A stretch of 64,000 bases of DNA from an uncultured Ruminococcus sp. Its GTDB lineage: Bacteria; Bacillota; Clostridia; Oscillospirales; Acutalibacteraceae. Shown one piece after another: positions 3,003-59,218 of this stretch (the stretch's first letter is position 1; each line of letters opens with the position of its first letter). A program made the position numbers and the translations under genes. The notes under the pieces are model-generated. The model worked only from the letters and a program-made list of their open reading frames with translations. It was not told where the DNA came from and did not search any database. The DNA lies in contig CADCCP010000004.1 of NCBI GenBank assembly GCA_902800005.1, forward strand, positions 3,773-67,772. Reading direction: 5' to 3'.

Positions 3003-3030
3003 TTGAATTTTAGAAATATTTTGGTATAAT
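3003..3030 (+). promoter_or_regulatory. sigma-70-type promoter of the asparaginase-like gene
   Basis: TTGAAT (3003-3008), 16-nt spacer ending in TGg, then TATAAT (3025-3030), i.e. an extended -10. Confidence 0.55.
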
Positions 3031-3103
3031 GAGGAATGATAAATTAGGAATGAGGAATGAAAATCGAAAATCCCAAAACATTCCTCATTCCTCATTCCTC
3101 ATT
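3031..3103 (+). repeat. heptad-periodic inverted repeat (GGAATGA type) in a 5' UTR
   Basis: Left arm AGGAATGAGGAATGA (3046-3060) pairs with TCATTCCTCATTCCT inside the right arm (3079-3103, CATTCCT x3). The loop is aaatcgaaaatcccaaaac. The element lies between the promoter and the RBS of the 3123 gene. Confidence 0.8.
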
Positions 3104-3122
3104 TAAACGGAGATGATGTTTT

Positions 3123-4076
3123 ATGAAAAAAATACTTGTTGCCATGACGGGCGGTACAATAGGCTGTTACTCCCAAAACGGCATTATTTCTCTTAAAAAA
3201 AATAACTGCCGTGCAGTTGAACTCTTTCAAAAGCAATTCCCCGACAGTGCAGATTTTGAAATCGTACAGCCACTCAACATTTTAAGCGAAAATCTCGACA
3301 AATCCCATTGGGAAACACTTGTCAACTTTCTATGTGAAACGGACATTTCTCAATTTGACGGTATTATCATCACTCACGGCAGTGATACACTTTCCTATAC
3401 TTCCGCCATGCTCGCTATCTGTTTAAGACATTTTAAAATTCCCGTTGTCATCACTGCCGCCAATTATATTCCCGATGATAAAAGAAGTAATGCCGTTGAA
3501 AATATCCGTTCTGCCGTTGCTGTAATAAATGAATTTCCGCACGGTATTTTCACCGTCTATCAAAATCCCAATGACGATTTCACAACGGTTTATCTTTCAA
3601 CAGATATTCATGAAGCCGACAGATTTCTCGGTAAATTTTCTTCTTTCAAAAATTCACCTTTCGGAAAAGTCGTCAACGGCACTTTCACGAAAATTTCAAT
3701 TGACCGACTGCCCGAAGTTGCACAGCCTGTTTTTAACGGAAAACTTTCTTTAAAAAATGACGTTCTTATTATATGCCCGTATCCGTCAATGCTTTACTCG
3801 GCAATAAACATTCCCGAAAGCGTAAAAGCCGTTCTGCACATCACATACCATTCCTGTACGGCGAAAACTCTCGGAAATGAAAATGCCCTTGACTTTCTCG
3901 CACTCTGCAAGGCAAAAAATATTCCGTTTTACATGACTGCCGTGAAAGACAGCTCTCTCTATGAAACAAGCAATATTCTTTTGCAAAACGGTGCAATTCC
4001 CCTTTACGATATGTCAAATGAAATGTCCTTTTGCACACTTCTCGGAAAATACAATAACGGTCAGGAAATTTCCTGA
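3123..4076 (+). CDS. L-asparaginase family protein
   Basis: N-terminal MTGGTIG threonine-nucleophile motif and HGSDTLSYTS motif; 317 aa. Confidence 0.75.
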   Translation: MKKILVAMTGGTIGCYSQNGIISLKKNNCRAVELFQKQFPDSADFEIVQPLNILSENLDKSHWETLVNFLCETDISQFDGIIITHGSDTLSYTSAMLAICLRHFKIPVVITAANYIPDDKRSNAVENIRSAVAVINEFPHGIFTVYQNPNDDFTTVYLSTDIHEADRFLGKFSSFKNSPFGKVVNGTFTKISIDRLPEVAQPVFNGKLSLKNDVLIICPYPSMLYSAINIPESVKAVLHITYHSCTAKTLGNENALDFLALCKAKNIPFYMTAVKDSSLYETSNILLQNGAIPLYDMSNEMSFCTLLGKYNNGQEIS

Positions 4077-7015: not shown

Positions 7016-8212
7016 ATGCTTACATTGGATAAAGTTTATCATGCATCATACGTTCTGAAAGACGTTATCAGACCGACAGACATGATAAAAGCTACTAATC
7101 TTGCAGACGACTTTGAACTGTATCTCAAAACCGAGAACTTGCAGATAACAGGTGCTTTCAAAGCAAGAGGTGCTTATTACAAAATTTCACAGCTCTCCGA
7201 TGAGGAACGTGCAAGAGGTGTTATTGCCTGCTCTGCAGGAAATCATGCACAGGGCGTTGCACTTGCCGCTTCAAAATACGGCATCAAATCTCTGATATGT
7301 ATGCCCGACTCTGCACCTATCTCAAAAGTTGAGGCTACCAAAAGTTACGGTGCAGAAGTATGTCTTGTAGAAGGCACTTATGACGATGCACATGATAAAG
7401 CTGTTGAGCTTCAGCAAAAGACAGGTGCAACTTTTATTCACCCGTTTGACGATGAACTCGTTATTGCAGGTCAGGGTACTATCGGTCTTGAGATCCTTGA
7501 ACAGCTTGCAGACGTTGATGCCATAATCGTACCTATAGGCGGCGGCGGTTTGATAAGCGGTGTTGCATTTGCCGTAAAATCACTCAACCCGAATGTCAAA
7601 ATATACGGCGTACAGTCTGCCGGTGCCCCCTCTATGTATATATCTATGGCTCACGGTCAGATCGAAACTTTACCCGGTGTCAACACATTTGCAGACGGTA
7701 TCGCTGTAAAAACTCCCGGTGAACTCACATTTGACATTTGCAGCAAATACGTTGATGAGATAATGACCGTCACAGATGATGAAACTGCAACTGCTATTCT
7801 CTCTCTTATCGAAAAGCAAAAACTCATTTCAGAGGGTGCAGGTGCTGTATCCGTTGCGGCAGCTCTCTTTAACAAGTTCCCGCTCAAAGGTAAAAAAGTC
7901 TGCTGTCTGGTATCGGGCGGTAATATCGATGTTACCATTCTTTCAAGAGTTATTGACAGGGGCTTGCAGAAAACAGGCAGACTCGCTGAATTTACCGTTG
8001 CCCTTACGGACAAGCCAGGTGAACTCAATACCGTTTCAAGGATCATTTCCAAACTCGGTGCAAACGTCGTTGCCGTCAGCCATGACAGGGCAGACCTCAA
8101 TACAGACATAAATTCATGTTATCTTCGTCTGTCGCTTGAGACTCGCAACCACGAGCATATACAGAAAATAAAGGACGAACTCGCCAGACACGGCTACAAG
8201 ATCGTTCAATAA
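7016..8212 (+). CDS. ilvA: threonine ammonia-lyase (threonine dehydratase) with C-terminal ACT-like domain
   Basis: PLP lysine motif TGAFKARGA, SAGNHAQGVA and the GGGGL glycine loop; 398 aa. Followed by ridA. Confidence 0.85.
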   Translation: MLTLDKVYHASYVLKDVIRPTDMIKATNLADDFELYLKTENLQITGAFKARGAYYKISQLSDEERARGVIACSAGNHAQGVALAASKYGIKSLICMPDSAPISKVEATKSYGAEVCLVEGTYDDAHDKAVELQQKTGATFIHPFDDELVIAGQGTIGLEILEQLADVDAIIVPIGGGGLISGVAFAVKSLNPNVKIYGVQSAGAPSMYISMAHGQIETLPGVNTFADGIAVKTPGELTFDICSKYVDEIMTVTDDETATAILSLIEKQKLISEGAGAVSVAAALFNKFPLKGKKVCCLVSGGNIDVTILSRVIDRGLQKTGRLAEFTVALTDKPGELNTVSRIISKLGANVVAVSHDRADLNTDINSCYLRLSLETRNHEHIQKIKDELARHGYKIVQ

Positions 8213-8214
8213 AA

Positions 8215-8318
8215 AGTGTGGAGAGTGAAGAGTGGAGAGTGGAGTTTATTTAAAACCGATTTTTTCTTGAAATTCGGGTTAAAAACCGCTCCACTCTCCA
8301 CTCTCAACACTCCACTCT
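8215..8318 (+). repeat. heptad-periodic inverted repeat (GAGTGGA type) between ilvA and ridA
   Basis: Left arm is four 7-mers GTGTGGA GAGTGAA GAGTGGA GAGTGGA (8216-8243). Right arm is TCCACTC TCCACTC TCAACAC TCCACTC (8290-8317). The inner 15 bp pair perfectly, with a 45-nt spacer. Confidence 0.85.
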
Positions 8319-8339
8319 AAACGGAAAGGAAGTATTTTT

Positions 8340-8714
8340 ATGTCAGAAGTAGTTTACACAAAAAACGCCCCCGATGCAATAGGTCCTTATTCACAGGCTA
8401 TCAAAACTAACGGACTTGTTTTTACATCAGGACAAATTGCCATCAATCCCGCAACAGGAAATGTTGAATCCGACACTATCGAGGGACAAACAGAACAGGT
8501 CATGCAGAATCTCAAAAATCTGCTTGAAGCATCAGGTTCATCTCTTGAAAAGGCTGTAAAAACAGTTTGTTTCCTTGCAGATATGAATGACTTCGGAGCT
8601 TTCAATGCTATCTATGGAAAGTACTTTACAGGCAAACCTGCACGTTCATGTGTAGCTGTCAAGACTCTCCCCAAAAATGTCCTCTGTGAAGTTGAAGTTA
8701 TCGCCGAGTGCTGA
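8340..8714 (+). CDS. ridA: RidA family reactive-intermediate (enamine/imine) deaminase
   Basis: 124 aa YjgF/RidA pattern (APDAIGPYSQA, ARSCVAV, VEVIAE), located downstream of threonine dehydratase. Confidence 0.85.
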   Translation: MSEVVYTKNAPDAIGPYSQAIKTNGLVFTSGQIAINPATGNVESDTIEGQTEQVMQNLKNLLEASGSSLEKAVKTVCFLADMNDFGAFNAIYGKYFTGKPARSCVAVKTLPKNVLCEVEVIAEC

Positions 8715-8794: not shown

Positions 8795-9487
8795 ATGCTT
8801 AAATTTTTCGGAAACGGCTCTGCTTTTGCAGACACCAACACCTGTGCATACTTCATACAAAACCATGACATGATCATTATCGATTTTTCTCAAAGTGCTT
8901 TCCCGAAATTCAGAAACCTTGATTTTTCGGACATAAGTAAAATATACATACTCGTTACACACACTCACGGCGACCATATAAGCGGTATCGGTACACTTAT
9001 ACATTATGCGTATTTCATTTTAAAAATCCCCGTTACCGTTGTAGCACCGTGCAGTGATGTTGCAGATGAATTAAAAGAACTTTTAAATCGCATTGAGGGG
9101 TGTATTCCTGACGGTTATAAGGTAATTTTGCCCTATGAAGTCAATCAAAATTGGTTTACTGCGGCAATACCTACGGAACATTCCGAACAACATATCAAAA
9201 AATGTTTCGGATATGCCCTTTCCATCAATTCATCTTCGGTCATTTATACAGGCGATACAAAAATATTATCCCCCTATCTCCCATATCTTCACGGCAATAA
9301 TACATATCTTTACACCGAAATATCCGCCCATAACAGCGGCGTACATCTTTACATAAATGACTTTTTTGACACTTTAAATGAACTTTGTCAAAACGGCATT
9401 AAGGTATATCTTATGCACATTGACGACAAAGCCGCCATTGAACAGAAAATTAAAGGTACTGCTCTTAAAATCGTCGATACAATATAA
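8795..9487 (+). CDS. MBL-fold metallo-hydrolase
   Basis: HTHGDH (HxHxDH) motif; 230 aa. Confidence 0.7.
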   Translation: MLKFFGNGSAFADTNTCAYFIQNHDMIIIDFSQSAFPKFRNLDFSDISKIYILVTHTHGDHISGIGTLIHYAYFILKIPVTVVAPCSDVADELKELLNRIEGCIPDGYKVILPYEVNQNWFTAAIPTEHSEQHIKKCFGYALSINSSSVIYTGDTKILSPYLPYLHGNNTYLYTEISAHNSGVHLYINDFFDTLNELCQNGIKVYLMHIDDKAAIEQKIKGTALKIVDTI

Positions 9488-9528: not shown

Positions 9529-9567
9529 TTTGATGTTTTTTTCGCAAACTTTGAGTTCCGACTTAAT

Positions 9568-9604
9568 TGTACATTGCACATTGCACATTGTACATTGCAC
9601 ATTG
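9568..9604. repeat. tandem heptamer array (TACATTG/CACATTG x5)
   Basis: Reads tgTACATTGCACATTGCACATTGTACATTGCACATTG, with no partner arm nearby. It lies between convergent genes. The reverse complement CAATGTG is the unit of the tyrS-leader hairpin. Confidence 0.8.
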
Positions 9605-10984: not shown

Positions 10985-12586
10985 TCATTCTGCATTGTTC
11001 AGCAGATTCCTGCACATCAGGAATATCAGAAATGATATTATCATGTTCCATATAAATACAGGCAATCCCATCATTGTTGCAGCTATGATCGAAAGTTCGC
11101 CTGCATTTGAAAGACTCATAAGTCCCAGCATTATTCCGGGTATCATCAATAAAAATATCAATGACATATAAAAAGTGATAAATACACCTCTGTTGCCGTT
11201 CATGCCGACTATCCTTTGTGCAAGGACATTTGCCGCTATATACACGCATCCGAAACTGCCGTATACAAGTATACTTGTCACAATATCGGGTATTTGTCCT
11301 CCGACTATCAGTGCAAGTACCAGATAGGCTATCGTACCATCAGTGAAAGGCTTTATTATACTCGTTGCAGATGCCATTATCAGTTTTTTGACGGGACTGT
11401 CGGGAATTAAAAATATATACGGCTTTGACAATTCTTTCACCCAATCTCCTGCCGCACTGAAAAAGAATTGAAGATAGGAACATATAATTGTCGTTCCAAG
11501 ATAAATTACAGTTGTTCTGTAAATGCCGTCCATTATCTGATCTATAACTAATCCCGTTACAAGTGCCACTCCCAAAAGTACCGCTGTGCTGATATTCAAA
11601 AAAATAAATCTTGAACGTCTTTCGCCTTCTTTGAGATGTTTATAGAATATGGCATTTGCACCGCTGCCTTTTTTGATGCCGATATTGGAATCTTTCAGTT
11701 TCTGCGAACTCATGCCAAAACTTTCACCCATATTGCCTGTTCTGAGGGATTCCCTGAAAGCGTAATTGCTTTCAGCCTGTCCGAGAACATCTTCATAGTA
11801 ATCAAGTTTTGTATAGACAAATACAAGTATGCAGGCTATCAATGACACGAAAAGCAATATCCCGTATACAGCGATATTCGCATAATTGCCGTCAATGATA
11901 CCGAATATAACTCCGTGTATCCAGCCTATCGGACTGTATTCAAGCATGGGCTGTGAAACGGCATAAAGCAGATTTTCAACGGTCATTCCGTTGGTGAACA
12001 TATATATACCCACAACTGCCAACGGATATACAGGTATCGCATAAATTATATATTTCATGACTTTTGCACGTTTCTGATGACCGCTTGACAAACAGAATAT
12101 CATCAATGTCATCATCTGTACAAGAATGAACATGACAATTATGCCGAGTATCAGCCATACAGCATCTTCCGCCGTAAGCCTGAATATATTCATAGCCATA
12201 CCGCCGTATGCCGAAAAACATATAGCAAGAAACAGCATTGAAGCAAGCTGTCTGCCGACACCGTATATGAGTATTTTTTTCTCCGACATGGGTGCAACGA
12301 ATATATTATTGACATCACTCATTGAAAAAAAACTTGTTCCCGAACTCAAGCCTTTGAGCATAATGGGAATACTTATAAAATGCAGGAGTGCCAAGTAACC
12401 GCCGTATAATGCCCTTGTATCCTTTTCAACGCTGTAGGTTGCGGTACTGTTGGCATATCCCATTAAAACGGCACTGATGATACTTAAAAAGAAAATACCG
12501 TACATCACCAACATCAAAGGATGTCTGAAAGCGTCTATGACCGCATTTTTGACGGTCTTTCGGACTATGTAGAAAATAGCTCCCAT
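10985..12586 (-). CDS. polytopic membrane protein, putative ABC-exporter permease
   Basis: 533 aa with at least 10 predicted TM helices. It starts 4 nt after the stop of the upstream ABC ATPase and has a GGGGAAG RBS. Confidence 0.7.
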   Translation of the reverse strand: MGAIFYIVRKTVKNAVIDAFRHPLMLVMYGIFFLSIISAVLMGYANSTATYSVEKDTRALYGGYLALLHFISIPIMLKGLSSGTSFFSMSDVNNIFVAPMSEKKILIYGVGRQLASMLFLAICFSAYGGMAMNIFRLTAEDAVWLILGIIVMFILVQMMTLMIFCLSSGHQKRAKVMKYIIYAIPVYPLAVVGIYMFTNGMTVENLLYAVSQPMLEYSPIGWIHGVIFGIIDGNYANIAVYGILLFVSLIACILVFVYTKLDYYEDVLGQAESNYAFRESLRTGNMGESFGMSSQKLKDSNIGIKKGSGANAIFYKHLKEGERRSRFIFLNISTAVLLGVALVTGLVIDQIMDGIYRTTVIYLGTTIICSYLQFFFSAAGDWVKELSKPYIFLIPDSPVKKLIMASATSIIKPFTDGTIAYLVLALIVGGQIPDIVTSILVYGSFGCVYIAANVLAQRIVGMNGNRGVFITFYMSLIFLLMIPGIMLGLMSLSNAGELSIIAATMMGLPVFIWNMIISFLIFLMCRNLLNNAE

Positions 12587-12589
12587 ATT

Positions 12590-13300
12590 TCACTTCCCCT
12601 TTTCCGTTATACTGAAAAACAGTTCTTCCAAATTTTCACCGCTCTGTTCAACAATTTTTCTGTCACGTTCAGCTTCGATCCTGCCGTTCATCATGATGAA
12701 AACTTTATCCCAGAATTCTTCCACGCTTTCAAGCATATGTGTACTTATTATAACAGATGTCCCGTTACCTCTCATTTCGGAAAGCATGGCTTTGAGTTCT
12801 TTGATGGCATGGGGATCAAGTCCGACAAACGGTTCGTCAAATAAAACCGCCTTTGGCTGTATCAGCAATGCACAGCAAATACTTATTTTTTGCTGCATAC
12901 CCTTTGAAAGTTCCTTTCCGAACTTGTTTCTTTTGTCGTCAAGTTCCATTCTGTTTATAAGTTTCTCTGCACGTTCTTCCCAATTTTCAAGCCTGTAAGC
13001 ACGGGCAATAAACTCCATATGTTCCCATACCGTCAGCAATTCAAACGGTGCGGGGATCTCGGGGATATATCCCAATATTCTTTTAGCGTCTGCGGATTTA
13101 TTGTTATGACCGCAGATCTCTATTTCTCCCGAAAACCTCAGCAGACCTGCAATACACTTGATAGCCGTAGATTTTCCTGCACCGTTAGGTCCTGCAAGAA
13201 CGGCTATTTCACCATCACTGACCGTAAATGACAAATTATCATTTGCCTTGAAACGCCCGTATTTTTTAGTAAGATGTGATACATTTATCATGCCTTTCAC
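12590..13300 (-). CDS. ABC transporter ATP-binding protein
   Basis: GPNGAGKST, LSKGMQQK and LFDEPFVGLD motifs; 236 aa. Confidence 0.85.
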   Translation of the reverse strand: MKGMINVSHLTKKYGRFKANDNLSFTVSDGEIAVLAGPNGAGKSTAIKCIAGLLRFSGEIEICGHNNKSADAKRILGYIPEIPAPFELLTVWEHMEFIARAYRLENWEERAEKLINRMELDDKRNKFGKELSKGMQQKISICCALLIQPKAVLFDEPFVGLDPHAIKELKAMLSEMRGNGTSVIISTHMLESVEEFWDKVFIMMNGRIEAERDRKIVEQSGENLEELFFSITEKGK

Positions 13301-17965: not shown

Positions 17966-18920
17966 TTATGTCAACCTCATTCATCATATTCCAATTCACG
18001 CACAATTTACCGTCGGGATATAATATCAGCTTTTGCAAGTGATTTTCCGAAATCCTCTTTTCCATTTCCTCGTAATCCGACATTTCAAAACACACTTTCA
18101 TTCCTCTATACTTATATTCAAACGAATAGTAATAATATCCCTGAACGATACTTTTCAATATAAATTCCCTTTCATCAAGCCGTGAAAGAATTTCAGATAA
18201 ATCTATCCTGTTTTTGATTATGTATTCCGCTGTATTACCCATGTCAACACATTTATCAAATACCGCAAGTTCCCTGAAAACCACATCTGAAATGCCCGTT
18301 GACTTGGCAAAATCAAGATATTGCTTTATTCCCTGATAATCGGAAATTCCCGTTTTCTGAAAAACACATACCATTCTCATATTGAAATTTTTGGAAAGCT
18401 GTCCGATCGTTTCAGTGAACACTCTATTATATTTTATCTTCTCATTCCTGTTGAAACACATTATCGAATTATTCACATTCTCGTCAAAGTGATGTCTTGA
18501 ACACTCTATCCTTGTAAAGCCTATTTTATCCAAAATATTCTTCAAGTCATATTTGCAAAATCCCGACAAATTGGAATACATGACTTTTTCACCGATATTT
18601 TTGTAATTCAAAACCATTTCGGCTATCAATGCAAGAATTTCGGGACTTTCCGTAGGTTCTTTGCCCGACAGCGATAAAAATACATCTCTGTCCGAAAGTA
18701 TATCAAGTACATTTTTCAGCCTTTCACGATAATCACCGCATATATTACGGCAAATCATAGCTTTACCGTTCCTGCTTAATCTCTCCGAACAAAATCTGCA
18801 ATTTGCACTGCATTCATTATAAATATACGGCGTAAATGAAATAATTTTTGCAGTATCTCTTTTTTCCACTTGTACTCCGCTTTTTTCCGCTATCTCTCTG
18901 TAATCTCCGTAAAACTTCAT
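17943..18920 (-). CDS. radical SAM protein, unknown subfamily
   Basis: CSANCRFC (CxxxCxxC) near the N-terminus and an SGKEP (GGEP-like) motif. Start is ATG at 18920, 6 nt after AAGAGGTG; the ORF-track start is a GTG inside that RBS. Confidence 0.8.
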
Positions 18921-19009
18921 GTCGTCCACCTCTTATTATCTTAAAGATATTATCAATAGAATTATATCATAACATATTTTCCATTGTCAAGTGCAAATCA
19001 AAAAAATCA

Positions 19010-19038
19010 TTGACAAACTATTCAATAACCGTTATACT
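19010..19038 (+). promoter_or_regulatory. consensus sigma-70 promoter of tyrS
   Basis: TTGACA (19010-15), 17 nt, TATACT (19033-38). Confidence 0.65.
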
Positions 19039-19053
19039 AATCTTTATAAAACG

Positions 19054-19113
19054 ATTAGCAATGTGCAATGTGCAGTCATTTAATTGCACGTTGCCGATTG
19101 CTAATTATTTTTT
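19054..19113 (+). promoter_or_regulatory. leader hairpin plus U-run (terminator-like) built from CAATGTG heptads
   Basis: ATTAGCAATGTGCAATGTGCA (19054-74) pairs with TGCACGTTGCCGATTGCTAAT (19085-105), followed by TATTTTTT. It lies 23 nt before the tyrS ATG. Confidence 0.7.
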
Positions 19114-19135
19114 AGATGAAAGGAAAGATATAAAA

Positions 19136-20365
19136 ATGGGAGTATTTGAAGAATTACAGGAAAGAGGGCTTATCGCCCAGATGACAGACGAAAATGAAAT
19201 AAAGGAGCTTATCAATTCTGGCAAGGCTGTTTTTTACATAGGTTTTGATCCGACTGCCGACAGTCTGCACGTTGGTCACTTTATGGCATTGAGTTTAATG
19301 AAACGTCTGCAAATGGCAGGAAACAAGCCTATCGCTCTTATCGGCGGCGGTACGGGCATGATCGGCGATCCTTCCGGTAAAACCGATATGCGTAAAATGC
19401 TTACCAAAGAGGATATTGAACACAACTGTGAATGTTTCAAAAAACAGATGAGCCGTTTCATTGATTTCTCCGAAGGAAAGGCTATGATGGTAAACAATGC
19501 TGACTGGCTTTTGAACTTGAATTACGTTGAACTTCTCCGTGAAGTAGGTGCTTGTTTCAGCGTAAACAGAATGCTTACCGCTGAATGTTACAAGCAGAGA
19601 ATGGAAAGAGGATTGAGTTTCCTTGAATTCAACTACATGATAATGCAGAGTTACGACTTTCTCTCACTTTACAGACAGTACGGCTGTAATTTGCAGTTCG
19701 GCGGTGACGATCAGTGGAGCAATATGCTTGGCGGTACTGAGCTTATCAGAAGAAAACTCGGTAAAGATGCTTATGCTATGACTATAAATCTTCTCCTCAA
19801 TTCAGAGGGTAAGAAAATGGGCAAAACTGAAAAGGGTGCTGTATGGCTCGATCCCGAAAAGACAAGTCCGTTTGATTTCTTCCAGTATTGGAGAAACGTA
19901 TCTGACGCAGATGTCATAAAGTGCCTGAAAATGCTGACATTCGTTCCCATGAGTGAGATAAACGAACTTGCAAAACTCGAAGGCAGCGAACTCAACAAGG
20001 CAAAAGAAATTCTCGCATTTGAATTGACTAAACTCGTTCACGGCGAAGAAGAAGCTCAAAAAGCCCTTGAAGGTGCAAGAGCATTGTTCTCCTCAAAGTC
20101 CGATACAGATAATATGCCCTCAACGGAACTTGATGAAAGCATATTCACCGATGGTAAAATAGGCATTATCGACTTGCTTTCCGCAACAGGTCTTGTTCCC
20201 TCAAAGGGTGAGGCAAGAAGACTTATACAGCAGGGCGGTATTGCCGTAGATGATGTTAAAATAACGGACTTTAAAGCCGAAATTTTAAAAGATGATTTTG
20301 CAAAGGGCTATGTAGTCATCAAGAAAGGCAAAAAGGTATTCCACAAAGCCATCATAAAAGAGTGA
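19136..20365 (+). CDS. tyrS: tyrosine--tRNA ligase
   Basis: HVGH (HIGH) motif, KMGKT (KMSKS) motif and a C-terminal S4 domain; 409 aa from [12 protein letters not shown]. Confidence 0.93.
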
Positions 20366-20470
20366 AGTGTGGAGAGTGGAGAGTGAAGAATAGAGAAAAA
20401 ATCACCAAACCGATCTGCACAAAAGCGGAATTTGTAATAACTCCACTCTCAACTCTCCACTCTCAACTCT
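20359..20470 (+). repeat. heptad-periodic inverted repeat (GAGTGGA type) between tyrS and nusB
   Basis: Left arm GAGTGAA GTGTGGA GAGTGGA GAGTGAA GAATAGA (20360-20394); the tyrS TGA stop lies in the first heptad. Right arm TCCACTC TCAACTC TCCACTC TCAACTC (20442-20469). Confidence 0.85.
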
Positions 20471-20484
20471 TAAAGAATGGGGGT

Positions 20485-20916
20485 ATGTTCATGGATAGAG
20501 AAACCAATATACAAAAAAGACGTGAGGACAGACAACAGGCTTTACAACTTGTATATGAAAGAATGTTCAGAGATGATACATTGGAAGATGTGCGTGCAGA
20601 CGCTCTTGATGCTCGTGATGAAGAAGTCAGCGACTATGCAAAACAGCTTATCGAGGGCATTGAAGCACATAAAGATGAAATTGACGAACTCATTGAAAAA
20701 AATCTCAAAGGCTGGAAAATCAACAGAATTTCCAAAATCGCTCTTGCAGCTATGAGAATTTCCGTTTATGAAATGAAGTATATAAAAAGCGTTCCCGTAA
20801 GTGTTTCTATAAATGAAGCCGTCAGCATGACAAAGAAATTTGCCGCAGATAAAGACGGTTCATTTGTCAATGGAGTATTGGGAGCGGTCGCAAAAAATCT
20901 TTCGGGTGAAAAGTGA
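20485..20916 (+). CDS. nusB: transcription antitermination factor NusB
   Basis: About 143 aa matching the NusB pattern (RRxxRxxALQxLY..., INEAVxxxKxF). Start at 20485 or 20491, after the repeat element. Confidence 0.85.
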   Translation: MFMDRETNIQKRREDRQQALQLVYERMFRDDTLEDVRADALDARDEEVSDYAKQLIEGIEAHKDEIDELIEKNLKGWKINRISKIALAAMRISVYEMKYIKSVPVSVSINEAVSMTKKFAADKDGSFVNGVLGAVAKNLSGEK

Positions 20917-29143: not shown

Positions 29144-31003
29144 ATGTCAGAAAATAGAATTTTAGATAATATCAGTTCTCCGTCAGATATTAAAAATCTC
29201 TCAGAGAACGATCTATATGAACTTGCGGACGAGATACGAACCGTCTTGATCGAGACCGTTTCTCAAAACGGCGGTCATTTAGCTTCAAATCTTGGTGTCG
29301 TTGAACTCACTCTTGCTATTCATAAAGTTTTCGATATGCCGAATGATAAGATAGTGTGGGATGTCGGTCATCAGGCATATACACACAAGATAATTACGGG
29401 ACGTAAAGATAAAATACACACTATCCGTAAGGAAAACGGTCTTTCCGGATTTCCGAAAAGAAGTGAAAGTCCTTATGACCATTTCGATACAGGTCACAGC
29501 AGCACTTCTATCTCGGCAGCTTTCGGTATTTCCTGTGCGGCTGACATCACAAAGGACAGCCATTATACGATAGCAGTTATCGGTGACGGTGCATTGTCAG
29601 GCGGTCTTGCATTCGAGGGACTCAACAATGCAGGCAGATATAAGAAAAATTTTATTATCATTCTAAATGACAATAAAATGTCCATTTCAAAAAATGTCGG
29701 CTCTATGGCAAAGTACCTGACAAAAACAAGAATAAAGCCATCTTATCTTGATGCAAAATCAAGAGTGCAGACATTTCTTGAAAAAATTCCCGTTGTAGGG
29801 AATTCCCTTGCCAACACGGTGAGAAAATTAAAAGACTGGGTAAGAGATGAATTTTTCGGTCACAGAAACAATATCTTTGAGCAAATAGGCTTTACTTATT
29901 ACGGTCCTTTTGACGGGCATAATATTCCTCAACTTGTGACAGCTCTAAAAGCAGCCAAAAGAAGAAAAGGTCCTGTATTGGTTCATGTATGTACAAAAAA
30001 AGGAAAGGGTTATGAATTTGCGGAAAAAAATCCCAAAGATTTTCACGGCATATCTTCCTTTGACATTGACACGGGTGAACCAAAAAGTTCCGCAAAAGGC
30101 TACTCATATATTTTCGGTCAATATCTTTGCAAACTTGCTGAAAAAGATAAAAATATATGTGCGATCACAGCCGCCATGTCATCGGGTACAGGTCTTGAAG
30201 GATTTGCCAAAAACTATAAAGACAGATTCTTTGATGTGGGGATAGCTGAAGAACACGCCGTCACCTTTGCAGGCGGTCTTGCAGCAGGTGAAGTGATACC
30301 TGTATTTGCCGTTTACTCAACCTTTTTGCAGAGAGCTTACGACCAAATCTTACATGATGCGGCTTTGCAAAATCTTCATGTAGTCCTTGCCATAGACCGT
30401 TCCGGCATTGTCGGTGAGGACGGTGAGACCCATCAGGGTATTTTTGATGTGGCTTTTCTCAATACCATTCCAAATGTGACCATTTATGCTCCGTCAAGCT
30501 TCAAAGAACTTGAACTCATGCTTGACAAGGCGATCTATGATACAAAAGGCACTGTTGCCGTCAGATACCCAAGAGGAAGCGAAAGCTATCTTCCCGATAA
30601 TTTTGAGCCGTCTGCCGAGCCTTACACACTTTACGGTGACATTGACAGTGATGATTTAGTGATAACCTACGGAAGAACTTTTTCCGATGTCTGTCTTGCC
30701 AGAGATGAGATCGACAGAAAAGTCTGTATTCTCAAACTCAACAGGATAAAGCCCGTTTCGGAAAAGGCTTTTGAGATCGCATTGAATTATAAAAGAGTAT
30801 TCTTTTTTGAGGAAGGCATCAAAAGCGGCGGTGTCGGTGAAAAATTCGGTTTTGCACTGTATCAGTCGGGCTTTCGGGGAAAATATCATCTTACGGCAAT
30901 AGAAAATTACGTTACTCAAAGTACAACAAGATCAGCTTTACATAAATGCGGTCTTGATACGGAAAGCATAAAACTTAAATTAGAAATTAGGAATGAGGAA
31001 TGA
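29144..31003 (+). CDS. dxs: 1-deoxy-D-xylulose-5-phosphate synthase
   Basis: GGHLASNLG, WDVGHQAY, GDGALSGG (TPP motif) and IAEEHAVTFAGG. Confidence 0.95.
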   Translation: MSENRILDNISSPSDIKNLSENDLYELADEIRTVLIETVSQNGGHLASNLGVVELTLAIHKVFDMPNDKIVWDVGHQAYTHKIITGRKDKIHTIRKENGLSGFPKRSESPYDHFDTGHSSTSISAAFGISCAADITKDSHYTIAVIGDGALSGGLAFEGLNNAGRYKKNFIIILNDNKMSISKNVGSMAKYLTKTRIKPSYLDAKSRVQTFLEKIPVVGNSLANTVRKLKDWVRDEFFGHRNNIFEQIGFTYYGPFDGHNIPQLVTALKAAKRRKGPVLVHVCTKKGKGYEFAEKNPKDFHGISSFDIDTGEPKSSAKGYSYIFGQYLCKLAEKDKNICAITAAMSSGTGLEGFAKNYKDRFFDVGIAEEHAVTFAGGLAAGEVIPVFAVYSTFLQRAYDQILHDAALQNLHVVLAIDRSGIVGEDGETHQGIFDVAFLNTIPNVTIYAPSSFKELELMLDKAIYDTKGTVAVRYPRGSESYLPDNFEPSAEPYTLYGDIDSDDLVITYGRTFSDVCLARDEIDRKVCILKLNRIKPVSEKAFEIALNYKRVFFFEEGIKSGGVGEKFGFALYQSGFRGKYHLTAIENYVTQSTTRSALHKCGLDTESIKLKLEIRNEE

Positions 31004-31852: not shown

Positions 31853-32722
31853 ATGAGCAGAATAAAAAGTATTGCTATCATGCCTAATCTGACAAAAAAA
31901 GATGCCTATGAAACGTCTCTCAGGGCAGTCAAGATGCTGACCGATATGGGATTTCGTCTGTTGATGGAATGCTCTCTCAGCAGACTTTATGATTCCGATA
32001 ATATCCTGTTTTTCGGAAGTGAATTCACCATGCTGAAATCATGCGATATGGTGCTGACTATCGGCGGTGACGGTACTATAATCCATGCTGCAAGAGAGGC
32101 TGCTCCCCTTGATAAGCCGCTTTTGGGCATCAACACGGGCAGATTGGGATTTGTTGCCGAACTCGAACCCAATGAACTCGATATGCTTCAAAGGATCGCT
32201 GACGGCAATTACAGCATTGAAAAAAGAATGATGCTGAAGATCACACATAAAAACAATGAATATGATGCCATGAATGATGCAGTCATTTCAAGAGGCTCTC
32301 TTTCAAGACTCATCGATATAGATGTATCACTTGCAGAGGACGGCGGCTATATATGCAGTTATCGTGCAGACGGGCTTATTATTTCAACTCCGACAGGCTC
32401 AAGTGCTTATTCGCTGGCAGCAGGAGGTCCTGTAGTCGAGCCTGCCATGAAGTGCATTGTCATGACACCCGTATGTTCACACTCGCTTTTTGCAAGACCT
32501 GTCGTGTTCAGCCACAGATCCCGTCTTGCGGTCAGTGCCTCCTGCGATGACAATACACAAGTCTATTTGACTCTTGACGGTGCAAAAACCATTACAATAG
32601 CCCGTTCTGATGTGATACATATCACCTCTTCAAAAACAGAGACTAAATTCATAAAACTCAAAGACAAAACTTTTTATAAAGTCCTTAACGATAAGTTTAC
32701 AGAGAAAGGCAGACAGGCATGA
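31853..32722 (+). CDS. nadK: NAD kinase
   Basis: GGDGT motif (TIGGDGTIIHAAR) and ISTPTGSSAYSLAAGGP. Confidence 0.88.
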   Translation: MSRIKSIAIMPNLTKKDAYETSLRAVKMLTDMGFRLLMECSLSRLYDSDNILFFGSEFTMLKSCDMVLTIGGDGTIIHAAREAAPLDKPLLGINTGRLGFVAELEPNELDMLQRIADGNYSIEKRMMLKITHKNNEYDAMNDAVISRGSLSRLIDIDVSLAEDGGYICSYRADGLIISTPTGSSAYSLAAGGPVVEPAMKCIVMTPVCSHSLFARPVVFSHRSRLAVSASCDDNTQVYLTLDGAKTITIARSDVIHITSSKTETKFIKLKDKTFYKVLNDKFTEKGRQA

Positions 32723-33186
32723 AAATAGAACGACAAAACAAAATACTTGAACTGATAAAGAACAACGATATTGAAACACAGTCCGAACTGCTTGAAAAGC
32801 TCAATGCGGCAGGCTTCACCGCAACACAGGCGACCGTTTCAAGAGACATCAAAGAAATGCGTCTCATCAAGATACCAAGCAGCAAGGGCGAATACAAATA
32901 TGCGGCAGACACCGTATCCGAAGAAGAACAACAGGCACATTCCTATCTGTTTTCGACTGCCGTTACAAGCATCGACTATTCTCACGGACTCGTTGTCATC
33001 AAAACAAATGTAGGCATGGCTCAGGCAGTCTGTGCGGCACTCGATTCCAAAAACCGTGCAGGTGTCATGGGGACTATCGCCGGAGACGATACCATATTTG
33101 TCGCCACACGCTCGGATTCCGCTTCTGCCGGGCTTGTTTCCGACCTCAAAAAACTCATGTCCTCAAAAATCAGGAACGAGAAATGA
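32719..33186 (+). CDS. argR: arginine repressor
   Basis: Winged-helix N-terminus (RQNKILELIKNNDIETQSELLEKL...ATVSRDIKEM) and C-terminal GTIAGDDTIFV. Confidence 0.9.
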   Translation: MKIERQNKILELIKNNDIETQSELLEKLNAAGFTATQATVSRDIKEMRLIKIPSSKGEYKYAADTVSEEEQQAHSYLFSTAVTSIDYSHGLVVIKTNVGMAQAVCAALDSKNRAGVMGTIAGDDTIFVATRSDSASAGLVSDLKKLMSSKIRNEK

Positions 33187-33199
33187 GGAGTGAGAAATT
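33169..33199 (+). repeat. purine-rich heptad run bridging the argR stop and the recN start
   Basis: AGGAACG AGAAATG AGGAGTG AGAAATT (33172-33199). It supplies the argR codons IRNEK, the TGA stop, and the GGAG RBS of recN (ATG at 33200). Confidence 0.7.
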
Positions 33200-34855: not shown

Positions 34856-34944
34856 GTGCGGAGCAAGTGACTGTTCCGACTTTTTGCAGAAAACTGCACT
34901 TATAAAAAAGTGGATATTGAAAGTCAAGCGGAGAATTTAACAGC

Positions 34945-34972
34945 TGCACTCTCAACACTCCACTCTACATTG
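34945..34972 (+). repeat. solo pyrimidine-rich heptad arm upstream of the HIT gene RBS
   Basis: TGCACTC TCAACAC TCCACTC TACATTG, the same units as the right arm at 8290-8317. Only a degenerate partner lies upstream. Confidence 0.6.
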
Positions 34973-44333: not shown

Positions 44334-44802
44334 ATATTTTTTTGACTTTTTTATTGATTATATCCGAAGAATGTGTTAAAATCAATATAAATAATATGTA
44401 AGGGTATTCTTTATTGTATACTTTTACACGAAATCTTTATAAAACAGGAGGCCTTTTCTCATGGTTAAACACATAGTCTTTTGGAAAGTTAAAGACAATG
44501 CTGAAAAACAACAGAATATTGACCGCATGATCGATATGCTCAAGTCCCTTGTCGGCAAAATAGAGGGACTTATCAGCGTTGAGGTCGGCTACAACTTCAA
44601 TCATTCGTCCGATTATGATGTGGTTCTCTATGCATCATTCACTAATCCCTCTGCTCTCAAGTATTACCAGAACCACCCTGAACACCTTAAATGCAAGGAC
44701 TTCATTTCTCAGGTAACTGTTGACCGTACTTGTGCAGACTACTTCTTTGAAAGCAACATGACTGCTGAAACAGAACCTACCGAGATCCCCGAAAGTGCAG
44801 AA

Positions 44803-44970
44803 GAAACTCCTGCTACTCCCGAAGTCACAGTAGAAACCCCCGCTGCTCCCGAAACCACAGCGGAAACTCCTGCCTCTCCCGAAATCACAGTAGAAACTCC
44901 TGCTGTTCCTGAAATAACAGTAGAAACTCCTGCTGTTCCCGAAGTCAAAGCGGAAACTCCTGCTAATCCC
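44803..44970 (+). repeat. 30-bp in-frame tandem repeat, 5.6 copies (ETPAxPExTV)
   Basis: Units begin at 44803, 44833, 44863, 44893, 44923 and 44953 (gaaactcctgctNNtcccgaaNtcacagta). Confidence 0.9.
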
Positions 44971-45571
44971 TTCGGTGTGACATTCAATACAGGTTCAGAA
45001 CAATCCTCTCTTCCCAATATACAGCCCGATACCAATTCCGTAGAAGAGGATATTGTTCAGCAGTTCCAAGATGTTCAGCCTTCTGTTCAAGGCTACAATC
45101 CCCAAATAAAAACTGAAGATCAACTTGATGTCGACAAGTCTGTAGAAAATTATCAGACTCCCGACCTTTCCTTCATAAAGGCTCAGGGTAAAACTGAGTT
45201 CAAACAAACCAAATTTGAAAACGATCTCAACGATCAGGCTGACAAGGATCATGCACAACCGCTTGAACCTATTGATTTCAGTTATGTTCCCCTTGCCGCT
45301 CCCATGAAGTTCGATCCTGATTCCAATTCCTACAACTTCGGCGACTATGTACAGCAACCTTCTAAGGAAATGACTATGAACGATACCCCTGTTTCAACAC
45401 CGGTTGCACCTCAAAAGCCTGCTGCTCCCACACGTATGCAAACCACTCCACGCACACCCGTTCGCTCTGCCACCAAGCCCCCTGTCAATGCCCAGGTCAA
45501 CCCCGTTTCAACCGAGCATTCCAAGATAAAGGAAACTACAAATGCATTCGGCAAAAAGAAAATTGACGTTG

Positions 45572-45665
45572 AAGTTACTCCTTTGGAACAGCGTGCAGAT
45601 GTATGGACTTGCCCGAACAAGTTACTCCTTTGGAACAGCGTGCAGATGTATGGACTTGCCCGAAC
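45572..45665 (+). repeat. perfect 47-bp tandem duplication
   Basis: aagttactcctttggaacagcgtgcagatgtatggacttgcccgaac occurs twice back to back. A third copy of its first 41 nt is at 45913-45953. Confidence 0.95.
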
Positions 45666-46011
45666 TGCGGTAAAGTTATGCCTAATTATGTCGGTACTTG
45701 TGGCTGCGGTGAAGTAAAACCCTTTGATTTCGGTGACGATGTTCCTGCCGCTCCTATGACATATCAGCCTGCTCCTCAGCAGACCGCTCCTCAGAGAACT
45801 GCAACACGTCCCATGAAAACCCCTCAAAATGCACAGGTAAATCCCGTTTCAACGGAACACTCCAAGATAAAGGAAACTACAAATGCATTCGGCAAAAAGA
45901 AAATTGACGTTGAAGTTACTCCTTTGGAACAGCGTGCAGATGTATGGACTTGCGGCTGCGGTGAAGTAAAACCTTTTGAATTCTGATTCCGATAATTGAT
46001 TACATAATTTT

Positions 46012-46048
46012 CAGCCCTCAAAGAAAAAACTTTGGGGGCTGTTTTTTT
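46012..46048 (+). terminator. rho-independent terminator
   Basis: CAGCCCTCAAAG...CTTTGGGGGCTG followed by TTTTTTT. Confidence 0.8.
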
Positions 46049-46050
46049 GC

Positions 46051-46086
46051 ATAAAAAGGCATAGCAGCCGTTGCTGACTGCTATGC
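46051..46086 (-). terminator. rho-independent terminator of ackA
   Basis: On the - strand: GCATAGCAG tcagcaacgg CTGCTATGC followed by CTTTTTAT. Confidence 0.7.
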
Positions 46087-46097
46087 GAATTTTTTGA

Positions 46098-54431: not shown

Positions 54432-55110
54432 CGATTTTCTTGACAGATATAAAAAATTGGAAGAAGCACTTAACTTGAAGTACGGGCTTGATGAAAAGAC
54501 ATTCGGCAGTCCCGTGGTGAAGTTCATAAATGACAGGGAAGGCAAAAATTACAGAGAGAAGTTGGACTTATGCAGAGAGATAAGAAACTTTCTGTCACAT
54601 CATGCAGACATAGGCGGAGAACCTATCATAGAGCCGTCCGAGAGCATCATCAATTTTCTTGATGAAGTGATACAGTTTGTAGAGAGACCTCCTCTTGCAA
54701 GGGGCTTTTGTACGCTTTATGAAAATGTACTGAAAACAACTCCCTCTCAGAAAGCACAGACTGTCATGAAAAAAATGCAGAGAATGGGTTTTTCACACAT
54801 ACCTGTGGTATCTGAGGGGGAGTTTATAGGTGTTTTCAGTGTCAGCACAGTCTTCAGCTATGCACTTAAATACGGCATTACGGAAGAATTGACGATAGGG
54901 GATTTTGAAGAATTTTTACCGCCTGACAAGCATGAAAATGAGAAATTCAAATTCATGCACAAGGATGTAAGTTTGTTTGAAGTAAGGTCGGAATTTGAGA
55001 AAAAGCCCTTCCGAAGCAAAAAATTAGCAGTAATATTTCTGACAGAGAACGGCACTCCCAACGGTAAAATAGTCGGCTTGCTCACTCCATGGGACGTTAT
55101 AAATGCATAA
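54421..55110 (+). CDS. CBS-pair protein with N-terminal helical HEPN-like domain
   Basis: N-terminal 90 aa contain REIRNFLSHH (Rx4H). The C-terminal half has two CBS-like units (MGFSHIPVVSEGEFIGVFS; KIVGLLTPWDV). Overlaps trmL by 11 nt. Confidence 0.65.
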   Translation: MRSDDFLDRYKKLEEALNLKYGLDEKTFGSPVVKFINDREGKNYREKLDLCREIRNFLSHHADIGGEPIIEPSESIINFLDEVIQFVERPPLARGFCTLYENVLKTTPSQKAQTVMKKMQRMGFSHIPVVSEGEFIGVFSVSTVFSYALKYGITEELTIGDFEEFLPPDKHENEKFKFMHKDVSLFEVRSEFEKKPFRSKKLAVIFLTENGTPNGKIVGLLTPWDVINA

Positions 55111-55134
55111 TTCATAATGCATAATGCATAATTA
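55105..55134. repeat. tandem heptamer array (GCATAAT/TCATAAT x4)
   Basis: GCATAAT TCATAAT GCATAAT GCATAAT TA. It contains the stop codons of both convergent genes (TAA 55108-10; TTA 55132-34). Confidence 0.8.
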
Positions 55135-58099: not shown

Positions 58100-58816
58100 T
58101 CAGAAAATATTATATGCATTTTTCATCATGTCTTCTTTTTCAAGTATCTTTCTTGACATATTATACCAGTTCATGCAGTTGTCAAGTATTATCGCATCAC
58201 TTGAAACAACTATACCGTTTATCTGTTTGAGTGCATAGTCAACTTCATTCATAATGATAACTTCTGTTTCAAAGCTGTATTTTTCAAAAGTTTCTTTGAT
58301 TTTTTTACCGAGCCTTCCCGAATTGGAGACGGGTGAATCAAGGTAAAATACGGCTTTTTTTATTCTGCTCTCACTCAGAAATTCCCCTATGGCATTAACA
58401 GCCAAGTCCGTTTTATCTATAAGCCTGTAAGTGCCACGCAAGCCCGCCAGATCTCTTACAGTACCGTCCATGCACTCAAACACGGGTGAGCCAGAAAAAG
58501 CGACTTCAAGTGTGATGACGGTATTGAAGCCGTCTATGAAAAGCACAGCACCTTCCGGCAAAACAGAAATTTCCTTTTGTTTCCGCACTTCAAGCTGAAT
58601 ATCAGAGGATATTGACCTCACCAATGCAAGCCTTTGTCTTTCGGAAAGTGTATAGTGGTTTCCAACAAAAACAGAAGCATTTTTTATCGGATAGCCTTGA
58701 TCGACAAGATATTTTATATCCCGTGAAGCTGTTCTAAGTATCTTCAATGCCTCTTCGGAAAAAAATTTCTCATCTTCGGGGACATATCCCCTTGCAACAG
58801 TTTTTATGTCTGACAC
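58100..58816 (-). CDS. hypothetical protein (DUF434-like N-terminus, PIN/NYN-like C-terminal half)
   Basis: 238 aa with LFIDGFNTVITLE (compare the DGYN motif of YacP/NYN nucleases). GTG start immediately after GGGG, so the start is uncertain. Confidence 0.5.
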   Translation of the reverse strand: MSDIKTVARGYVPEDEKFFSEEALKILRTASRDIKYLVDQGYPIKNASVFVGNHYTLSERQRLALVRSISSDIQLEVRKQKEISVLPEGAVLFIDGFNTVITLEVAFSGSPVFECMDGTVRDLAGLRGTYRLIDKTDLAVNAIGEFLSESRIKKAVFYLDSPVSNSGRLGKKIKETFEKYSFETEVIIMNEVDYALKQINGIVVSSDAIILDNCMNWYNMSRKILEKEDMMKNAYNIF

Positions 58817-58833
58817 CCCTTTTTTAAAGAAAA

Positions 58834-58910
58834 ATAAATAGTGAATAACGAATCATACAGAACCACCGCTCTGCCATACATATTCATTACTCACTATCCA
58901 TTATTCATTG
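58834..58910 (-). repeat. heptad-periodic inverted repeat (GAATAAT/GTGAATA type) between tRNA-Leu and the next gene
   Basis: On the + strand the arms are ATAAATAGTGAATAACGAATCATA (58834-57) and CATATTCATTACTCACTATCCATTATTCATTG (58879-910). Pairing is imperfect and the arm has 7-nt periodicity (ATTCATT ACTCACT ATCCATT ATTCATT). Confidence 0.7.
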
Positions 58911-58914
58911 ATAC

Positions 58915-59014
58915 TGCCGGTAACCGGACTCGAACCGGTACGGATTCGAACCGGTACGGATTTTACTCCGAGGGATTTTAAGTCCCTTGCGTCTGCCTAT
59001 TTCGCCATACCGGC
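58915..59014 (-). tRNA. tRNA-Leu (anticodon UAA), 100 nt, with a 16-nt tandem duplication at the variable-arm/T-arm junction
   Basis: - strand sequence: GCCGGTA TG GCG AAATAGGCAGA CGC A AGGGA CTTAAAA TCCCT CGGAGTAAAATCCGT [ACCGGTTCGAATCCGT] ACCGG TTCGAGT CCGGT TACCGGC A. All stems are canonical once the bracketed copy is ignored. No CCA is encoded. Confidence 0.75.
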
Positions 59015-59218
59015 AAATTCAATACCGGTTTCATTATAATACATTAACTCCAAAATGTCAAGTTTTTTGTAAAAAACAATATGTTATCTTTAATCTGCAA
59101 ATTTGCTTAAAAAAATGCATTCCATATACGATTTTATGCAATTTATCAAAACGTAATTGACAAATCACTTGATGTGTTTTATAATGAATAAAAAAGATTC
59201 ACAGGAGGTTTTTTTGAT

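Follow-up and report, generated by a model that had tools for sequence, protein, structure and literature searches.

What is the long inverted repeat, built of tandem 7-nt units, that separates ilvA from ridA in an uncultured Ruminococcus sp.? The repeat lies at positions 8215-8318 of the window, by which is meant the whole 64,000-nt stretch analysed here (assembly GCA_902800005.1, contig CADCCP010000004.1, positions 3,773 to 67,772 of the forward strand). An initial annotation, made from the sequence, took it as the type example of a family of RNA-level elements that might mimic the pairing of Shine-Dalgarno (SD) and anti-SD sequences. We read the window arrays as heptanucleotide simple sequence repeats (SSRs) of the LSSR/STRR class, generated by replication slippage, several of which are arranged as convergent, hairpin-forming pairs; the probability of this reading is put at about 0.7. 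In a pair, a C-free, G-rich array (R arm) at the left gene boundary is followed, after ~10-50 nt, by its G-free complement (Y arm) at the right boundary, an order termed R..Y below.

The ilvA-ridA element and its variation between strains

The window has nine period-7 arrays, compared with 0.1 in dinucleotide-preserving shuffles, a density of about one per 6 kb, and a scan of it for other short tandem periods (4-6, 8-11 and 13) found none. This excess over shuffled sequence confirms that a family with heptad periodicity and complementary arms exists. The R arms of the window pairs have no C and the Y arms no G. Hairpins of the pairs have z-scores of -4.5 to -7.1, with a predicted helix of 15-28 bp from either transcript strand, and solo arrays are unstructured (z -0.6 to +0.2).

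The 5' arm of the ilvA-ridA element (8215-8244) begins 2 nt past the ilvA stop codon and consists of four heptads GWGTGRA, AGTGTGGAGAGTGAAGAGTGGAGAGTGGAG. The centre (8245-8288) is 44 nt in length, and its predicted fold displays a small imperfect inner hairpin, ACCGATTTT / AAATTCGGGT. The 3' arm (8289-8318) has approximately four heptads CTCCACT/CTCAACA, CTCCACTCTCCACTCTCAACACTCCACTCT, and is separated by 4 nt from the ridA SD, GGAAAGGAAG, at 8323-8332. Tandem Repeats Finder assigns period 7 to both arms, and a repeat finder reports an inverted repeat of 49 nt, 78% complementary, of which the inner 15 bp are perfect. Thus the heptad arms, their complementarity and the 15-bp perfect inner stem are as initially described, with a spacer of 44 rather than 45 nt. 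The predicted RNA fold of 8208-8345 has an energy of -56.1 kcal/mol (z -7.1). No promoter-like or terminator-like site was found when the element was scanned for them. Genes that flank this and other elements of the window are ordinary (threonine ammonia-lyase IlvA, a RidA-family deaminase, exodeoxyribonuclease III, asparaginase, TyrS and NusB), and the window shows strong GGAGG-type SDs, TATAAT boxes, rho-independent terminators and a G+C content of ~40%, with a SpoIID gene close by, features that suggest a Firmicute-like organism.

Relatives provide the empty site. A metagenome scan with IlvA gave 80 loci at 68-80% IlvA identity, and at 74-80% identity the adjacency of ilvA and ridA is kept in nine groups, with a spacer of 15-35 nt that lacks heptads and carries the same SD region, GAAAGGAAGT, as the window. 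The ~100-nt element is, as judged from this comparison, a lineage-specific addition between the ancestral stop codon and SD. Since the relatives' spacer is just 15-35 nt, any insertion there must end just before the SD. Over 664 kb of the loci at 68-80% IlvA identity, period 7 is not enriched and only five distinct arrays are present. Separate R..Y pairs are seen among them: a distant relative has (AAAGAGA)n...(CTCTCTC) directly after ilvA (L136, 3801-3870), and AATTCGG...AATTCCG is found in L144/L146 at ~2245-2640. AnsA and Xth orthologues were sought in the relatives' loci for a second empty-site comparison, with no match owing to the loss of synteny there.

Variation between near-identical strains is the strongest indication of how the arrays change. 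Identity to the window is 98.3-99.8% in ten contigs, from rumen and gut assemblies, whose IlvA is the same; among strain contigs, differences of whole heptads (7 or 14 nt) are found at all four comparable array loci. The ilvA-ridA pair has four heptads on the left and four on the right in the window and L001, five and three in L002, two and four in L003, L005 and L007, and four and three in L004, L006, L009 and L010. The right arm of the xth-ansA pair has 3.6 units in the window and 2.6 in L001, L002, L004 and L008; the solo ATTGCAC array (9566-9604) ranges over 3.6, 5.6, ~8 and at least 23 units; and the tyrS-nusB right arm has lost one 14-nt double unit in L257, where the left arm is the same. 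At all three pairs the two arms vary independently. A hairpin still forms in a new register after the loss or gain of units because the arms are periodic. Assemblies often terminate inside arrays.

Judged from these comparisons, the strain pattern is a signature of slipped-strand mispairing, not that of a structure kept by selection. Pairing had been proposed to be conserved between copies, which is contradicted by arms that gain and lose units separately. Comparison of orthologous spacers, suggested in the initial annotation, does reveal presence/absence polymorphism (the relatives are empty), without the compensatory arm changes that were to accompany it.

The proposed mechanism starts with arrays that would lengthen and shorten by slipped-strand mispairing at replication. 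The preference for 7 nt may reflect the length that polymerase contacts in slippage, as suggested by Mrazek et al. (2007) according to the summary in PMC4679880. C-free and G-free units may persist because a single such array is unable to self-pair. A pair would be born in one event, by inverted duplication of an existing array or a template switch, before eroding one arm at a time until solo arms are left; the 34856-34966 spacer resembles a copy in that state. In mRNA, long perfect double-stranded stems would stand at the 5' end of ansA and in three spacers: ilvA-ridA, tyrS-nusB, and that from tRNA-Leu to the gene after it. The obvious physical consequence of a pair would be a long RNA hairpin, either within a 5' untranslated region (5'UTR) or between cistrons, and to this extent the proposal of an RNA-level element is supported. 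Plausibly the stem would be cut by RNase III or act as a barrier to decay. Heptad number would set stem length and leave units unpaired, and expression of flanking genes may drift or be tuned, by analogy with Haemophilus hmw.

This raises the question of whether the arrays are contingency (phase-variable) switches, whose heptad number is selected for setting neighbour-gene expression. Strong copy-number polymorphism among strains and the position of hairpins in 5'UTRs or between cistrons are as expected for such switches, and hmw1A is an experimentally proven analogue (PMC12721329). The neighbours here are housekeeping genes (ilvA/ridA, tyrS/nusB, asparaginase, tRNA), not surface or host-interaction genes; arrays between convergent genes involve no 5'UTR; and elements are absent from relatives and decay, as at 34856-34966. 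No sign that an expression effect is under selection was seen in the window, given the housekeeping neighbours and the arrays between convergent genes, and we consider such switches unlikely.

Two further changes are seen among the strain contigs. In L004 synteny breaks at ~12570-12600, right where the ATTGCAC array ends, and the gene beyond is a different one; in L002 an internal deletion (11780-11950) affects the metallo-beta-lactamase (MBL)-fold gene located at 8795-9487 in the window.

Could the arrays act as DNA, with cruciforms or slipped DNA influencing replication, recombination or supercoiling and the RNA being irrelevant? The inverted repeats are perfect enough for extrusion, the R..Y order is independent of flanking gene orientation, the break in L004 falls exactly at an array end, and arrays are where assemblies break. 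Spacer lengths of 18-51 nt speak against cruciform extrusion, one rearrangement is anecdotal, and the surroundings of the Xanthomonas heptamer repeats are reported to be more stable, not less (Rehm et al., PMC4692102). A DNA-level role is given only a very slight chance.

Other pairs and solo arrays in the window

The three further pair sites of the initial annotation (3028-3060/3079-3103, 20358-20389/20441-20470 and 58829-58853/58882-58906) are all real. Its solo arms at 30977-31003 and 34947-34966 are also real, and that at 33167-33198 is present in weaker form. In addition, the window has solo arrays at 9566-9604 (ATTGCAC x5.6) and 55102-55132 (AATGCAT x4.4) and a pair at 19052-19108, which were absent from that account. 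Every array of the window either is in a spacer or overlaps a stop codon, and the view that they are non-coding is supported.

The xth-ansA pair has a 5' arm (3028-3060) of the AATGAGG family, interrupted and C-free, and a G-free 3' arm (3079-3103, CATTCCT x3.6) that ends 5 nt before the ansA SD, GGAG. The -10 box of a promoter-like site at 3003-3030 (TTGAAT-16-TGgTATAAT) overlaps the first heptad, and therefore the hairpin would stand at the 5' end of the ansA mRNA. The predicted fold of 3022-3130 has an energy of -34.1 kcal/mol (z -5.8).

The C-free 5' arm of the tyrS-nusB pair (20358-20389) belongs to the same GAGTGRA family as the ilvA-ridA element, and its first heptad holds the tyrS TGA stop codon. 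Its 3' arm (20441-20470) is G-free, consists of a perfect 14-nt double unit x2.1 (CTCCACT CTCAACT), and ends 8 nt before the nusB SD; the predicted fold of 20350-20495 has an energy of -43.7 kcal/mol (z -4.5). Upstream of tyrS, on the plus strand, GCAATGT heptads and a degenerate complement (19052-19108; 19039-19121 at the widest) form a predicted hairpin of 26 bp, followed by a U-run just before the tyrS ribosome-binding site (RBS); the fold of 19030-19140 is predicted at -33.5 kcal/mol (z -5.5). Naive open reading frame (ORF) calling makes both genes too long: nusB then reaches into the left arm of the tyrS-nusB pair, and tyrS runs upstream of its true start, over the heptads at 19058-19074.

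T-box control of tyrS is common in Firmicutes. A permissive Rfam scan (18450-19200, E<=1) for a T-box before tyrS gave only spurious matches to miRNA hairpins, with none at gathering score either, and the lack of a detectable T-box leader there is of note given its frequency in that group. Over the whole window at gathering score, Rfam has tRNA-Leu as the sole match and no family for the heptad elements. Near 18-20 kb, GC skew and gene-strand bias both flip sign, next to an ORF-poor stretch of ~900 nt (17966-18847); a decayed gene is one possible reading of this point, an origin or terminus of replication another.

The element between tRNA-Leu and the next gene (58829-58906, minus strand) has degenerate ARTGRRT heptads and their complement in a 21-bp stem; the downstream gene starts near 58816 or at a later ATG, and the predicted minus-strand fold of 58780-58915 has an energy of -41.0 kcal/mol (z -5.3). 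The tRNA-Leu(UAA) itself (58915-59014, minus strand) has an internal 16-nt tandem duplication in the T-arm region (Tandem Repeats Finder, 58925-58962, x2.4). Its length is 100 nt by the Rfam model and 84 nt by ARAGORN (58932-59015), and either damage to the gene or an assembly variant may be the cause.

Solo arrays are diverse in unit and location. The array at 9566-9604 (ATTGCAC/ATTGTAC) lies between convergent genes and its RNA is predicted to be unstructured (z -0.6). That at 55102-55132 holds the stops of both convergent genes (55110/55132). The C-free array at 30977-31003 (AAATTAG/GAATGAG x3.9) includes the stop codon of gene 29144-31003, and the weak, C-poor run at 33167-33198 (AAATCAG, GAACGAG, AAATGAG, GAGTGAG) runs across the stop of gene 32719-33186 and serves the gene at 33200 as its SD, GAGGAG. 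Array-supplied stops are thus found in tyrS (20358-20365), in genes 29144-31003 and 32719-33186 and in the convergent pair at 55110/55132. The G-free arm at 34947-34966 ends 5 nt before an SD and its fold is not significant (z -1.4). All of its 20 nt, CACTCTCAACACTCCACTCT, are identical to 8299-8318 of the ilvA-ridA element 26 kb away, which implies copying between the loci. The start of the same spacer, 34856-34870 (GTGCGGAGCAAGTGA), is the probable decayed partner of this arm.

Long hairpins might also halt or pause RNA polymerase, as terminators, attenuators or insulators. Just ahead of tyrS, the sequence after the 19052-19108 hairpin is UAUUUUUU, and on the minus strand the U-rich runs CACUUUUUAUU and CUCUUUUAUG, after the ilvA-ridA and tyrS-nusB hairpins, could stop antisense transcription. 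On the sense strand no U-tract follows the arms that end at 3103, 8318 and 20470, the loops are 18-51 nt, and a terminator scan of arm-to-arm hairpins was negative, its single match being a 5-bp stem in the tyrS-nusB centre (20414-20429). The short spacing of ilvA and ridA in relatives argues for an operon. Termination as the basis of the family is accordingly judged very unlikely.

Repeats of other kinds also occur in the window (44788-44964, 45572-45665, 45718-46097 and 62276-62344). Gene 44461-45717 has coding repeats of 30/60/90 nt. One 47-nt sequence is duplicated exactly (x2), and the 3' end of this gene recurs in the following spacer. A protein of 1083 amino acids has AAC/CAA-rich coding repeats.

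Spread, arm order and unit preference

When one genome per species was scanned for three units of GWGTGRA, at least 120 stretches were found, with ~17 expected by chance on our estimate. The matches listed span more than 10 phyla, sporadically: Planctomycetota, Gemmatimonadota, Acidobacteriota, Bacteroidota (many Prevotella; Chitinophaga), Chloroflexota, Verrucomicrobiota, Campylobacterota, Gammaproteobacteria, Endomicrobia, many rumen Clostridia and one archaeon. The loci of these matches, together with the window, make up 920 kb and are the basis of the counts that follow unless IMG/VR is named. Period-7 arrays number 310, with no more than 39 for any other period. Almost half of them (148) are not of the query family and represent 98 other heptads; among the 148, exactly one of G or C is missing in 81, compared with ~26% of random heptads by our estimate. 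In IMG/VR loci there are 224 period-7 arrays against at most 38 for other periods, leaving aside period 14, a multiple of 7 (203).

Pairs were counted as inverted arrays within 300 nt. The G-rich arm comes first in 39 pairs and second in 3, in every flanking-gene configuration, and all five window pairs conform; in the independent IMG/VR set the ratio is 8 to 0, and the sum is 47:3. Architecture and arm order are thus shared by many phyla. At many loci of the matches listed, the distance from a pair arm to an ORF end is 0-30 nt. For solo arrays no more than 60 nt from a stop codon, the sense strand is G-rich in 66 cases and C-rich in 26, and near start codons there is a weak bias, 26 C-rich to 20 G-rich. 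Avoidance of Rho sites, with stop- and start-codon content, was considered as a cause of the R..Y order and rejected: the solo biases predict ~70-80%, and 94% is observed.

The initial annotation had stressed that the purine arm comes first on the strand of the downstream gene. This is true, and it is automatic since an R..Y inverted repeat is identical on both strands; the genuine regularity is R..Y as opposed to Y..R. The proximity of the pyrimidine arm to the RBS also holds, with ends 4-14 nt before the SD in five of five cases, which for ilvA-ridA is imposed by the short ancestral spacer.

Many heptads form arrays and GAGTGAA is favoured. Exact four-unit arrays of GAGTGAA are present in 28 stretches of IMG/VR, compared with same-composition permutations GAAGTAG (7), AATGAGG (6), GAGAGTA (2), AGGTGAA (1) and GATGAGA (0). 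(GAGTGAA)n, found in 27 IMG/VR contigs, is thus 4 to at least 28 times commoner. A shared A-R-T-G core (AGTGGAG, AATGAGG, AATGTGC, AATGCAT, ARTGRRT) is suggestive as a family signature in this genome and is not claimed: GGGAATC and ATCTTTC lack it, and the cross-phylum sample was ascertained on AGTG.

Does the purine arm act as a decoy SD? The proposal is that GGAG-rich arms mimic the SD and CUCC-rich arms the anti-SD, gating ribosome access downstream. The R arms of three elements do contain GGAG, GAGG or AGGA and the Y arms CUCC, Y arms stand close to SDs that are strong in this organism, and for the surplus Y heptads of L003 (two left, four right) weak pairing to the region of the ridA SD is predicted. 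The ATTGCAC, AATGCAT and ARTGRRT arrays of the same window are not SD-like. (AGTGAAG)n, the commonest cross-phylum form among the matches listed, is without GGAG and is abundant in Prevotella and Chitinophaga; Bacteroidota rely little on SD pairing. The SD is left unpaired in predicted minimum-energy folds of full pairs. Arm position is dictated by the ancestral spacer and arm changes are not compensatory. SD/anti-SD mimicry is therefore highly improbable as an explanation.

In Prevotella (L020, L034, L050, L077, L089, L090, L097 and L127) and in IMG/VR (L222, L223 and L229) the arms are joined to a conserved inner palindrome, as (AGTGAAG)n-AATTTGCTNCCGCC ... GGCGGCAGCAAATT-(CTTCACT)n, which is found at 13 sites, viral contigs included, some of them half-elements. 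By its sequence this sub-family looks like a dispersed family of the repetitive extragenic palindrome (REP) type. It also bears on the question of whether the window elements are mobile palindromes that end in heptads, akin to REPs, bacterial interspersed mosaic elements (BIMEs) or MITEs (miniature inverted-repeat transposable elements), moved by a transposase or REP-associated tyrosine transposase (RAYT) acting in trans, with slippage secondary. Insertion relative to the relatives' spacers, the same arm family at three loci in 64 kb and the 20-nt segment identical at two are consistent with this; fixed orientation of terminal inverted repeats (TIRs) would explain the R..Y rule, and (GAGTGAA)n in viral contigs suggests a possible route of transfer. 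When the four window elements were aligned in search of a common core, none was found: the arms alone align, the centres show no relationship to one another, and a GTAG/CGTC REP tag is lacking. No clear target-site duplication is present, flanks being A-rich with TAAA on both sides in two of four. Arms are unequal in length and altered by slippage, and solo arrays of unrelated heptads are equally common. Mobility of this kind has a low probability. The initial annotation likewise doubted a transposase-dependent MITE; nothing marks one, transposases having been looked for solely among genes near the elements.

Reading the arrays as products of slippage leaves several regularities unaccounted for, and these weigh against it. 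Plain slippage does not explain the exclusive period of 7, the position of the G-rich arm 5' in 47 of 50 pairs, the excess of (GAGTGAA)n over its permutations, the identical arm segment at loci 26 kb apart, or the complete lack of heptads of this kind at 68-80% IlvA identity. Birth of a pair by template switching is a proposal, and transcription, RNase III cleavage and an expression effect are predictions. No published explanation of the 7-nt period was found in our search of the literature. Whatever the mechanism, it must explain the three-letter arms, the arm order irrespective of gene orientation, and the GAGTGAA preference. Perhaps the arrays are the footprint of a dedicated, horizontally transferable period-7 process, an enzyme or mobile agent present in some lineages, that lays convergent C-free/G-free arrays at gene boundaries. 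Such a process would account for the strict period, the 47:3 arm order in every gene configuration, the occurrence of (GAGTGAA)n both in viral contigs and across over 10 phyla, and a distribution among relatives that is all or none; we regard it as a quite unlikely explanation.

The practical consequences are that heptad loci break short-read assemblies, shift gene-start calls (nusB, tyrS) and serve as variable-number tandem repeat (VNTR) markers for strain typing. Should RNase III cleave the stems, as it does in Haemophilus hmw, mutable expression dials would be built into the housekeeping operons of such genomes.

Relation to known heptanucleotide repeats and other elements

The initial annotation knew of no described element with heptad construction, and accepted a previously named family as refutation, which is the case here. 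The class, its convergent inverted arrangement and one worked mechanism are already published: named heptanucleotide repeats, 7-nt indels between strains, proximity to starts and stops, and convergent pairs have all been described (PMC4679880, PMC4692102, PMC12721329). When the repeat strings themselves were looked up in the literature, the only matches were to unrelated eukaryotic primers.

Several classes are set apart by their structure. CRISPR, iterons, G-quadruplexes and H-DNA were rejected because of the wrong unit length, the absence of G-runs and repeats that are inverted rather than mirror. REP/BIME elements and MITEs are likewise short, intergenic, dispersed, hairpin-forming inverted repeats that are present or absent between relatives. 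They differ from the window elements in having a conserved core, tag or target-site duplication and in lacking arms of variable-number heptads. Where REPs and BIMEs have a conserved GTAG or CGTC tag and many near-identical palindromes of 20-40 bp, the window elements share arms alone; as to MITEs, the arms are TIR-like, but internal sequences are unalignable and flanks are similar only in A-richness.

Haemophilus hmw1A/hmw2A provides the worked mechanism. Rapun-Araiz et al. (2025) report that (AUCUUUC)n forms one arm of a long 5'UTR hairpin that is cut by RNase III, and that hmw expression depends on repeat number (PMC12721329). In common with what is predicted for the window pairs, a heptameric SSR (~10 units in Haemophilus) pairs with a complementary G-rich arm, and slippage alters the number of units; the promoter-like site before ansA would place that predicted hairpin in a 5'UTR as well. 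It differs in that the G-free arm is 5' (Y..R), the partner arm is not a tandem repeat and the gene encodes an adhesin, whereas the window genes are housekeeping. For Haemophilus there is proof both of cleavage by RNase III and of an effect of repeat number on expression, whereas the window hairpins are predicted.

MacGregor (2015) describes arrays of the TAACTGA heptamer that adjoin start codons in marine Beggiatoaceae and also in Bacteroidetes and cyanobacteria (PMC4679880), and 7-nt indels are found between Cyanothece strains (PMC4679880). They resemble the window arrays in having 2-6 copies beside start codons or over an upstream ORF's end, stops in all frames, strain indels in 7-nt steps, solo arrays predicted to be unstructured, and occurrence in distant phyla. 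They differ in the unit, in being nearly all direct (1 inverted in 170) and in often standing 1 nt from a start codon without an SD.

Similar in layout are the GGGAATC arrays of Xanthomonas, described with GGGGA(C/T)T of Nostoc by Rehm et al. (2015; PMC4692102). There are 70-75 convergent pairs per Xanthomonas genome, able to form stem-loops, with ~4 units preferred and mostly transcribed (PMC4692102), and stability is reported as raised, not lowered, in their neighbourhood. As in the window pairs, convergent heptamer arrays have the G-rich array first, and the G-rich strand is sense just after stops and antisense just before ORFs. The Xanthomonas and Nostoc units have tracts of three to four G residues and form G-quadruplexes; the window units GAGTGGA, AATGAGG and ARTGRRT have no run of three or more G, so that G-quadruplex formation is not expected.

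Heptanucleotides are the most abundant class of 5-11 nt repeats, LSSR, in the summary of Mrazek et al. (2007) given in PMC4679880, and cyanobacterial STRR heptamers go back to Mazel et al. (1990), according to the summaries in PMC4679880 and PMC4692102. LSSR/STRR and the window arrays have in common tandem 7-nt units, mostly in 2-6 copies, an intergenic location, sporadic phylogeny, dominance of period 7 and proposed slippage. Judged from these summaries, the window units (GAGTGRA, AATGAGG, ATTGCAC, AATGCAT) and the host are outside the described cases. The window arrays display head-to-tail units beyond chance, whole-unit polymorphism between strains, intergenic position at gene boundaries and sporadic distribution, all of them marks of LSSR/STRR. 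Thus, what looked like an unfamiliar family of heptad hairpins is probably the bacterial heptanucleotide-repeat phenomenon, now seen in an uncultured rumen organism and hypervariable between its strains.

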